DNA of 64,000 bases from Escherichia coli. Its GTDB lineage: Bacteria; Pseudomonadota; Gammaproteobacteria; Enterobacterales; Enterobacteriaceae. Shown here piece after piece: positions 49,929 through 51,228 of this stretch. The position numbers and the translations under genes were made by a program. Below the pieces are notes generated by a model. That model was given only the letters and a program-made list of their open reading frames with translations. It searched no databases and had not been told where the DNA came from. The stretch lies in the NCBI RefSeq assembly GCF_030013205.1, contig NZ_CP122648.1; one strand, 5' to 3'. Positions within the stretch are counted from its first letter, which is position 1, and each line of letters starts with the position of its first letter.

Positions 49929-50432
49929 TCAATGCAGCTGATGCGACACGACATTCAGAACATGTTGGTCGGTCTGCACAGGGCACATACCCGCAAGTTT
50001 CGCACTGCGCACTTCATCAAGAATGGTTTGCAGCAACAGGCCATCATGCTGCTGTTCTTTTTCCAGATCGCGCAGGAAATTGACGGTTGAATCATCATTC
50101 AGTTCTTTCGCTTCATCGGCTAACTGCGCCAGCGTGCTTGAACGTTGCTCGTATTCTTCCATCGTTTTTTGGAACAGTTCTTCCAGAGAGTTCAGTTTTT
50201 CACCGGGAACATCAATGGCTTTAACGATGGGGGTAGCGCCGACACTCTTCATAAAGTTAAACATGCGCATCATTTGGGTCACGTTACTCTGTGCCTGGGC
50301 GCGAAGGAAAGTGGCGGTGCCGTTCAGACTCTGTTCAGAACACCAGTTACTCAGGTGAAGGTAGAGATTGGATGCGTAAAACTCGCGGTTCATTTGAGAG
50401 TTGAGTTTGAGAAGCATTCCAGCGGTTGCCAT
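49929..50432 (-). CDS. ftnB: Ferritin-like protein FtnB
   Basis: 167-aa [43 protein letters not shown]... Confidence 0.9.
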
Positions 50433-51228
50433 ACCTAATATCCTTATATCCAGAAGTGGAGAGGTGCAAGATAAATCAAAACACCATAATTACTGTTTGC
50501 AGAATAATTCCTTTCTGCCGGTCCGAAATGTGATCGTGGAGTCAATTCTGACGATGATCTGAAATAAGAATAACGTCTGAGCGGGTATAAGAAAATGCTT
50601 AAATCATCAAGTTTATATATTTTTACATTTCATTGATGAAATCAATGTAACTGCAATGAATTTTAATGATAGTGCTTTTTGTATCTTGTTGATATTAATC
50701 GATGAATTTGAATTCATGATGAAGTGATGATTTTATAAAACGTTTTTTCATTTTTGCGAGATGGCTCTCATTATACGTGTTCTGTTAATTAATGAGCACA
50801 GTGATAATTAATGGCGAAATGAATGACGCGCATTTTCCACATCTTTGAGTTGTGGTTATTACACCATTTCAAAAACTCAACGCCAGGTAATGCGGCCTGT
50901 TGACTGGTTAAAAAGAAGACATCCCGCATGGGTACCAAAGACAACAAGGATTTCCAGGCTAATCTTATGGATTAATCTGCTGTGCACTAGCCAATTTGTC
51001 AGACAAATTGGCTTTTCCTTATGTCTTTTCCCGCTAAATTTATGCACGTTCTCACTGTAATTCTGCGATGTGATATTGCTCTCCTATGGAGAATTAATTT
51101 CTCGCTAAAACTATGTCAACACAGTCACTTATCTTTTAGTTAAAAGGTAATGCTTTGTTTTCCGATTAATTTAACGAATGTCATTCGTTTTTGCCCTACA
51201 CAAAACGACACTAAAGCTGGAGAGAACC

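Follow-up and report, generated by a model that had tools for sequence, protein, structure and literature searches.

A strain-specific 25-bp palindrome upstream of Escherichia coli araFGH extends a conserved 15-bp dyad that may be a GntR/FadR-type operator

Within the ara regulon, a textbook system, araFGH, which encodes the high-affinity arabinose transporter, is thought to be under AraC and CRP alone. Two AraC sites, araFG1 and araFG2, have reportedly been described at araFGH, and work by Hendrickson in 1992 is said to have found that deletion of the upstream AraC site affects the promoter only slightly. As published for ParaFGH, AraC is located upstream of CRP, in reversed order compared with pBAD, and the CRP site overlaps the −35 region; the published araI1 sequence, the reference for AraC half-sites in what follows, is TAGCATTTTTATCCATAAGATTAGC.

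Repressors of the GntR family normally occupy sites that overlap the core promoter. For the AraR box of Bacillus subtilis, the sequence ATTTGTACGTACAAAT was reportedly given by Mota et al. in 1999; AraR is a Firmicute protein, and we know of no enterobacterial orthologue. The published consensus of the FadR subfamily is an A/T-rich palindrome with TKGT and ACMA boxes, in which GT and AC lie 3 nt apart (NyGTM-N0-1-KACNy), and operators of GntR-family regulators have been DNase-footprinted in Pseudomonas for LhgR (TTGTCTGACAA) and AlkR (ATTGTCAGACAAT).

The window, i.e. the whole 64,000-nucleotide stretch of E. coli DNA that was analysed and to which all coordinates refer unless K-12 is named, contains the following features around the araFGH upstream region:

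49929–50432, minus strand: ftnB coding sequence, divergent from araF
50989–51013, no strand assigned: perfect 25-bp palindrome with 12-nt arms and a 1-nt centre, a strain-specific form present in about 0.6% of complete E. coli genomes
51014–51021, plus strand: T-rich tail TTTTCCTT, the K-12 equivalent of which is TTTCCCTT
51229–52218, plus strand: araF coding sequence

The palindrome, AGCCAATTTGTCAGACAAATTGGCT, lies in the ftnB–araF intergenic region (about 796 bp, GC content down to 0.26) and is composed of the arms AGCCAATTTGTC and GACAAATTGGCT, 12 nt each and 100% complementary, on both sides of a single central A. An earlier note on this DNA had described a perfect palindrome at this position, some 215 bp upstream of the araF start and with ftnB divergent upstream of it, and all of this was confirmed: 215 nt separate the palindrome end from the araF ATG at 51229, and the perfection is that of this strain's form only. 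The palindrome is far beyond chance (0 matches in 100 dinucleotide shuffles of the window), and just one further perfect palindrome with 12-nt arms and a 1-nt centre was found in the 64-kb window, at 27335–27359 (TTCCCGCTGTGG-N-CCACAGCGGGAA). No further copy of the palindrome itself was detected in the window or elsewhere in E. coli genomes, which hold one locus each, the median of 2 places per genome being both strands of one site; being single-copy, it is thus not a dispersed repeat of the REP/BIME-like kind. Scanning of 50300–51400 against Rfam returned noise alone, with nothing near the gathering score, and in the K-12 RefSeq record the dyad carries no annotation. Together with the tail TTTTCCTT, the 12-bp stem has a terminator-like shape on the plus strand only; the RNA hairpin of the window allele was calculated at −13.1 kcal/mol (z = −3.0) and was scored as terminator-like by a simple scan.

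The 797-bp intergenic region was found in 5417 of 5426 complete E. coli genomes. Alleles were classed by their identity to the window 41-mer around the palindrome, for which 5401 genomes gave a match: 33 genomes showed at least 99% identity, 514 genomes 95–99%, 45 genomes 90–95% and 4809 genomes, K-12 MG1655 among them, 80–90%. The perfect palindrome is confined to the 33; about 514 genomes differ by one mismatch in an arm, and about 4800, with K-12, are of the 9-bp-arm type with its weak hairpin and poorer T-run. The K-12 allele, TTCGACAATTTGTCTGACAAATTGGCTTTC, which maps to about 1986344–1986368 in that genome, has 9-nt arms and a poorer T-run, and its hairpin is weak and insignificant (−5.9 kcal/mol, z = −0.8). 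Between the window and K-12 there are 13 differences across the intergenic region, five of them inside the 31 bp at the palindrome, and three of these five raise the likeness to a terminator, two being located in the stem and one being a C-to-T change in the T-run. Two genomes of the 95–99% class were fetched, and both carry CTAGACAATTTGTCAGACAAATTGGCTTTT, with a single mismatch at arm position 10; a further allele is K-12-like with TTTT. The perfect form is the next allele plus the one base that completes the arm. Since intermediate alleles exist, the perfect palindrome was reached stepwise, and a single template-switch event for all five differences from K-12 was rejected on the same grounds and because only two of the changes are templated by the other arm. 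The two stem changes, but not the others, could be put down to quasi-palindrome correction, a mutational bias well established for E. coli. Among the fetched genomes, only that of strain K_EC180 (L001) matches the window at 100% over the intergenic region; araF and araG are annotated there as frameshifted pseudogenes, and both open reading frames are intact in the window.

For comparison, the araF loci of 80 other species were collected and 82 upstream regions were aligned; the conserved part of the palindrome is its inner part:

50994–51008, no strand assigned: core dyad ATTTGTC-A-GACAAAT, predicted operator of a dimeric winged-helix (GntR/FadR-type) regulator

About 50 of the 80 Enterobacteriaceae species carry an exact TTGTnnnACAA whose position relative to the araF ATG is fixed at −231 to −234; these species belong to Escherichia, Citrobacter, Enterobacter, Leclercia, Klebsiella, Raoultella, Phytobacter and others. 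The conserved 15-bp core can be written ATTTGTCnGACAAWT, and the sequence flanking it varies by species; in the 82-sequence alignment the core columns ATTTGTCnGACAAAT are 70–90% conserved, compared with 10–40% for the outer arms and the remaining spacer. Counted column by column on the 70 ungapped sequences, the 12-pair hairpin falls into two parts: the five outer pairs are unpaired in 33–46 of the 70, and the inner seven are invariant or broken one-sidedly (e.g. TTGTA-G-GACAA or TTGTC-A-TACAA), a T/A swap at one position being the sole two-sided change among them. Because changes in the core break its symmetry and do not compensate, they were counted in favour of an operator. The homologous block of Siccibacter, Franconibacter, Mangrovibacter, Cedecea and Buttiauxella reads ATTCATCATACATAT, a conserved but non-palindromic sequence that fits only half the consensus, and in the Citrobacter freundii group the element is replaced altogether by a different sequence. 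There is strong support for the view that this strain has extended, into a perfect 25-bp palindrome, a 15-bp dyad that is conserved in the control region upstream of araFGH; the conserved object is the 15-bp core, not the 25-bp palindrome. Of the conservation in related genomes on which the earlier note had made its proposals depend, that of the core was borne out; neither the outer arms nor the perfect symmetry show such conservation. The same spacer in three loci of the C. freundii group (L047, L049, L054) contains an A7-CGCG-T7-like sequence, CGAAAAAAACGCGTTTTTTT, a palindrome with a T-run.

These patterns bear on whether the palindrome has a function at all. A neutral palindrome, enlarged by chance or by template-switch mutation (quasi-palindrome correction), would be in keeping with the presence of the perfect form in 0.6% of genomes, one arm-completing base away from the next allele, with the known mutational bias of E. 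coli and with outer arms that are unconstrained across species. Neutrality accounts for the outer arms only, however, and leaves unexplained a 15-bp core that has been kept at a fixed position although the flanking spacer is saturated with change, so that a complete lack of function appears quite unlikely.

A second explanation takes the terminator-like shape at face value. An intrinsic terminator or insulator on the plus strand, i.e. a hairpin with a U-run, would stop upstream transcripts before the AraC and CRP sites and araFGH; such transcripts could originate from a weak start at 50971 in E. coli and from a co-oriented DJ-1/PfpI gene in other genera. The window allele indeed scores as terminator-like (11 pairs, a 3-nt loop and TTTTCCTT; −13.1 kcal/mol, z −3 to −4.3), three of its five differences from K-12 give a better stem or U-run, and the weak start is located 18 nt upstream of the palindrome. 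Hairpins that are likewise strong (−12 to −20 kcal/mol, z at most −2.5) and run into T5–T8 were found in three Klebsiella species, in Raoultella, in Enterobacter sp. JUb54 and in three Pseudocitrobacter; outside these non-Escherichia taxa, among the 82 sequences, a strong hairpin with a T-run occurs only in the window E. coli allele. Their outer arms vary and yet stay complementary (GCGCT/AGCGC, GGGCG/CGCCC, GGCC/GGCC and ACGTC/GGCGT, the last with one G·U), and this covariation within the Klebsiella/Raoultella/Pseudocitrobacter group suggests that the hairpin matters there. In the C. freundii group a different small hairpin with T7 is found at the same place, and in most non-Escherichia genera the DJ-1/PfpI gene is co-oriented just upstream.

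A significant hairpin is nevertheless absent from about 70 of the 82 sequences and from about 89% of E. coli, K-12 included, and the presence of a strong hairpin is not tied to the upstream gene, which five such taxa have and four lack, and most carriers of the gene are devoid of a hairpin. In K-12 Term-seq data, which refer to the K-12 allele without arabinose, no 3′ end is present at 19863xx or 19864xx on either strand, and no sigma-70 promoter was found in the intergenic region by consensus scan. A stable G+C-rich hairpin with a U-run is weakly developed in the window allele (−13.1 kcal/mol, four G–C pairs, UUUUCCUU) and not in K-12 (−5.9 kcal/mol, z −0.8); over the 70 sequences the pairs are not kept by compensatory changes, the outer-arm covariation being confined to the Klebsiella/Raoultella/Pseudocitrobacter group; and the top of the stem is conserved in sequence and its base variable, which is the opposite of terminators. 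As a general account, termination is therefore considered unlikely. Strong hairpins with a T-run arose separately in Klebsiella, Raoultella and Pseudocitrobacter and in this E. coli lineage, and a terminator or insulator role is accordingly possible there and not general; termination or insulation is a plausible lineage-specific role, not a conserved one. The idea of a roadblock insulating araFGH, also put forward in the earlier note, is in this sense retained for the rare allele and the Klebsiella clade and dropped for most species and for the 89% of E. coli in which no significant hairpin is present.

Its proposal that the palindrome marks the 3′ end of a small RNA from the intergenic region drew little support. 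The terminator-like shape and the weak transcription start 18 nt upstream would fit, but the RNA would be only about 45–50 nt long, starting from the only start nearby, that at 50971 with its 3 reads; there is no Rfam match and no K-12 Term-seq end, the upstream sequence is conserved only at the AraC sites, and most strains have no hairpin. We regard this reading as hardly credible.

Several observations were made on the surroundings. The DJ-1/PfpI gene (185 aa, PF01965) is situated between ftnB and araF at about −875 to −317 from the araF ATG (L009, L010 and most non-Escherichia loci), is co-oriented with araF and ends about 80 bp before the element. It is carried by Citrobacter, Enterobacter, Klebsiella, Leclercia and others and is lacking in all Escherichia, which have an unrelated AT-rich stretch (about 50630–50944) in its position. 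Homology of the E. coli intergenic region to Citrobacter is limited to the 285 bp next to araF and the 194 bp next to ftnB, and a remnant of the DJ-1/PfpI gene was discarded as tblastn gave no match in the E. coli intergenic region. In the araF–araG spacer, at 52234–52256, there is a perfect palindrome with 11-nt arms, CCCCTCTGCAT-C-ATGCAGAGGGG, and K-12 Term-seq places a 3′ end at 1985131 (about 52226 in the window), on the opposite strand and classed as antisense to araF; antisense transcription appears to be stopped by this hairpin, which may be bidirectional. On the ftnB strand, Term-seq 3′ ends at 50458 and 50501 (K-12 1986899 and 1986856), 26 and 69 nt upstream of the start codon, suggest that transcripts end prematurely, or are processed, within the ftnB leader.

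The position of the dyad was then considered within the araFGH control region, for which these features were assigned:

50945–50982, minus strand: distal AraC-type half-site pair, CAGCAGATTAATCCATA and TAGCCTGGAAATCCTTG, a direct repeat with 21-bp spacing, putatively assigned
50971, plus strand: weak published transcription start, 3 reads, giving a 258-nt leader to araF (Kim et al. 2012 TSS table, coordinates converted)
51020–51057, minus strand: second AraC-type half-site pair, CAGTGAGAACGTGCATA and TAGCGGGAAAAGACATA, conserved and 21 bp apart, putatively assigned
51064–51101, minus strand: promoter-proximal AraC-type half-site pair, probably araFG1
51114–51129, plus strand: CRP-like site TGTCA-N6-TCACT

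If the CRP-like site is centred at −41.5, the araFGH start would lie near 51163–51164 and the dyad centre at about −163. The core dyad sits in the 37-bp spacer between two strongly conserved AraC-type half-site pairs. The distal pair reads away from araF and is conserved across genera, and its first half-site continues as ...ATCCATAAGATTAGC, exactly as in the published araI1 sequence; located at about −219 to −182 from the predicted start, the pair matches the araI1 consensus better than anything else in the region (AGCAGATTAATCCATAAGATTAGC). With the second and the promoter-proximal pair, three candidate AraC dimer sites are thus present (50945–50982, 51020–51057 and 51064–51101), against the two reportedly described; the last is probably the araFG1 of Hendrickson 1992. 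The start at 50971 falls inside the distal AraC-type site, and the consensus scan returned no sigma-70-like promoter in the ftnB–araF intergenic region. The distal AraC site was also considered as the driver of a divergent promoter like pBAD; this was rejected, there being no −10 and conservation ending at the half-site. Readings of the core as a CRP, FNR, IHF, Fis, matS, LexA or mar-box site or as a sigma-70 −35 or −10 element were rejected by eye, each for wrong spacing or poor matches, and no partner hexamer is conserved at 17±1 bp.

Given this neighbourhood, the dyad might itself belong to the upstream AraC-binding region (araFG2) or be an architectural element of the AraC complex, either through weak AraC contact via the B-box-like GACAAA/GACATA or by providing a bend or the right phase between AraC dimers. 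It is enclosed by two conserved AraC-type half-site pairs, its halves GACAAA and TACATA resemble GACATA, the B-box of the adjacent half-site, AGC occupies the A-box position in the minus-strand sequence AAGCCAATTTGTCTGAC, at a distance of 20 bp from the next half-site, and the non-palindromic variant of the distant genera retains ACATA. Presumably, the database positions of araFG2 could overlap the dyad. On the other hand, the AGC of the A-box is not conserved beyond E. coli (columns under GGCT 20–40%), the best register, AAGCCAATTTGTCTGAC, has a spacing of 20 bp instead of 21 and matches the B-box at 2 of 6 positions, and the reportedly slight effect of deleting the upstream AraC site is likewise counted against this reading. 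Inverted B-boxes correspond to no AraC arrangement known to us. The dyad departs from the AraC half-site pattern (17-bp TAGC-N7-TCCATA, direct repeat, 21-bp spacing), which the flanking blocks do follow, and an AraC-associated element of either sort is decidedly unlikely. The statement of the earlier note that the palindrome does not resemble an AraC half-site holds for the palindrome, and the conserved AraC-type half-site pairs on both sides had been missed.

We favour, as a tentative choice whose chances are put somewhat short of even, an operator at which a dimeric winged-helix protein, from the FadR/FCD subfamily of GntR regulators, would bind and modulate the upstream AraC complex. Among the proposals of the earlier note, the operator of a dimeric regulator is the one best supported, by cross-genus conservation and the GntR/FadR consensus, for the inner 15 bp and not for the outer arms, which are not conserved. 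TTGTC-A-GACAA at 50996–51006 is a GT-N3-AC palindrome, the core sequence TTGTCAGACAA fits TKGT-M-N-K-ACMA, and ATTTGTC/GACAAAT combines the TKGT and ACMA boxes with an A/T-rich periphery. Like the phylogenetic footprint of such an operator, the core is conserved upstream of orthologous araF genes. In addition, the core carries 11-mers identical to the footprinted LhgR and AlkR sites (11–13-mers were covered). TTGTMNKACAA has a single occurrence in the window and none elsewhere in the 552 kb of the fetched araF loci. In a 50-kb segment of K-12 this pattern yielded only DgoR-type operators (TTGTACTACAA and relatives, TTGTA[CG]TACAA), located at the dgoR promoter; since known-type operators and nothing else in 50 kb were recovered, the pattern is specific.

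The functional unit would be the inner 15-bp AT-rich dyad ATTTGTC-N-GACAAAT at 50994–51008, placed about 163 bp upstream of the predicted araFGH start in the spacer between two AraC half-site pairs. A protein bound there might modulate the upstream AraC complex, e.g. the cooperativity or looping between AraC sites. RNA polymerase would not be occluded; instead, the high-affinity arabinose transporter would come under a second metabolic input. In the strain of the window, two substitutions in the left arm (positions −12 and −10) have lengthened the dyad to a perfect palindrome with 12-bp arms, and the T-run has become better through a change of C to T. The terminator-like hairpin that results is probably a recent, lineage-specific by-product or add-on.

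The cognate regulator was sought in 350 kb of K-12 with TTGTMNKACAA near dgoR, lgoR, uxuR, glaR, mcbR, rspR, yieP and glcC, where only the DgoR operators were found, and TTGTCnGACAA does not occur near these eight candidate regulator genes. The supplements of two genome-wide binding studies (ChIP-exo and IPOD-HR) contain no entry at the dyad position. Leads from the genomic-SELEX literature to a factor at ftnB/araF proved false, among them an author named Arafah. As the scans gave no cognate regulator, we infer the protein family, like protein binding to the dyad and its effect, from the sequence of the element. The position at about −163 between activator sites counts against a simple homodimeric repressor and is unusual for a GntR repressor, and the asymmetric ATTCATCATACATAT in five distant genera is awkward for the site of a homodimer, the site being palindromic in most genera. 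Upstream of K-12 rspA (L091, 45142–45347), an even-spaced dyad, TTTTGTCAGCTGACACTT, has arms like those of the araF dyad and a different spacing; it may be an RspR operator.

A broader proposal, that a second operator of GntR/FadR type is situated between the AraC sites and was independently extended into terminator-like hairpins in several lineages, is possible but on balance doubtful. If true, the high-affinity arabinose transporter would gain an extra metabolic input across Enterobacteriaceae, and an operator would have seeded a de novo terminator in a small E. coli clade, in Klebsiella/Raoultella and in Pseudocitrobacter. A conserved dyad between the AraC sites would mean that one regulatory input is missing from the araFGH model, and would also supply a target for an orphan E. 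coli regulator. The E. coli allele series, from 9-bp arms via 11/12 to a perfect 12 with a better U-run, could together with the independent hairpins of the Klebsiella clade serve as a small natural experiment on operators growing into hairpins. If the element binds nothing, it would illustrate that a striking perfect palindrome can be a variant of 0.6% frequency, not to be taken for a conserved terminator.

Compared with known systems, the window allele and the Klebsiella clade share with intrinsic terminators a stem of 11–13 bp, a 3-nt loop and a T-run on one strand. They differ in that the window allele has only four G–C pairs and an interrupted U-run, in that no 3′ end was mapped in K-12, and in that most orthologous regions have no hairpin and the stem is conserved in sequence at its top, not at its base. 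With the B. subtilis AraR box the dyad has in common the setting in a promoter of arabinose utilisation or transport, the arms ATTTGT...ACAAAT and the (here predicted) GntR-type DNA-binding domain of the regulator; the AraR box differs by its GT-N4-AC spacing, and the resemblance may simply reflect the family consensus. The dyad lies inside the araFGH control region (araFG1/araFG2, CRP over −35), with AraC-type half-sites in reverse orientation on both sides, but is by sequence itself neither an AraC nor a CRP site. From the LhgR, AlkR and DgoR operators it differs in its location at about −163 between activator sites and not over −35/−10, in having no regulator encoded nearby and in its non-palindromic variant in distant genera. 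It resembles them in the odd-centred dyad, the GT-N3-AC spacing, the TKGT/ACMA boxes, the A/T-rich periphery and the length of 13–15 bp, and the DgoR sites at dgoR differ from the araF core only at the M/K positions.
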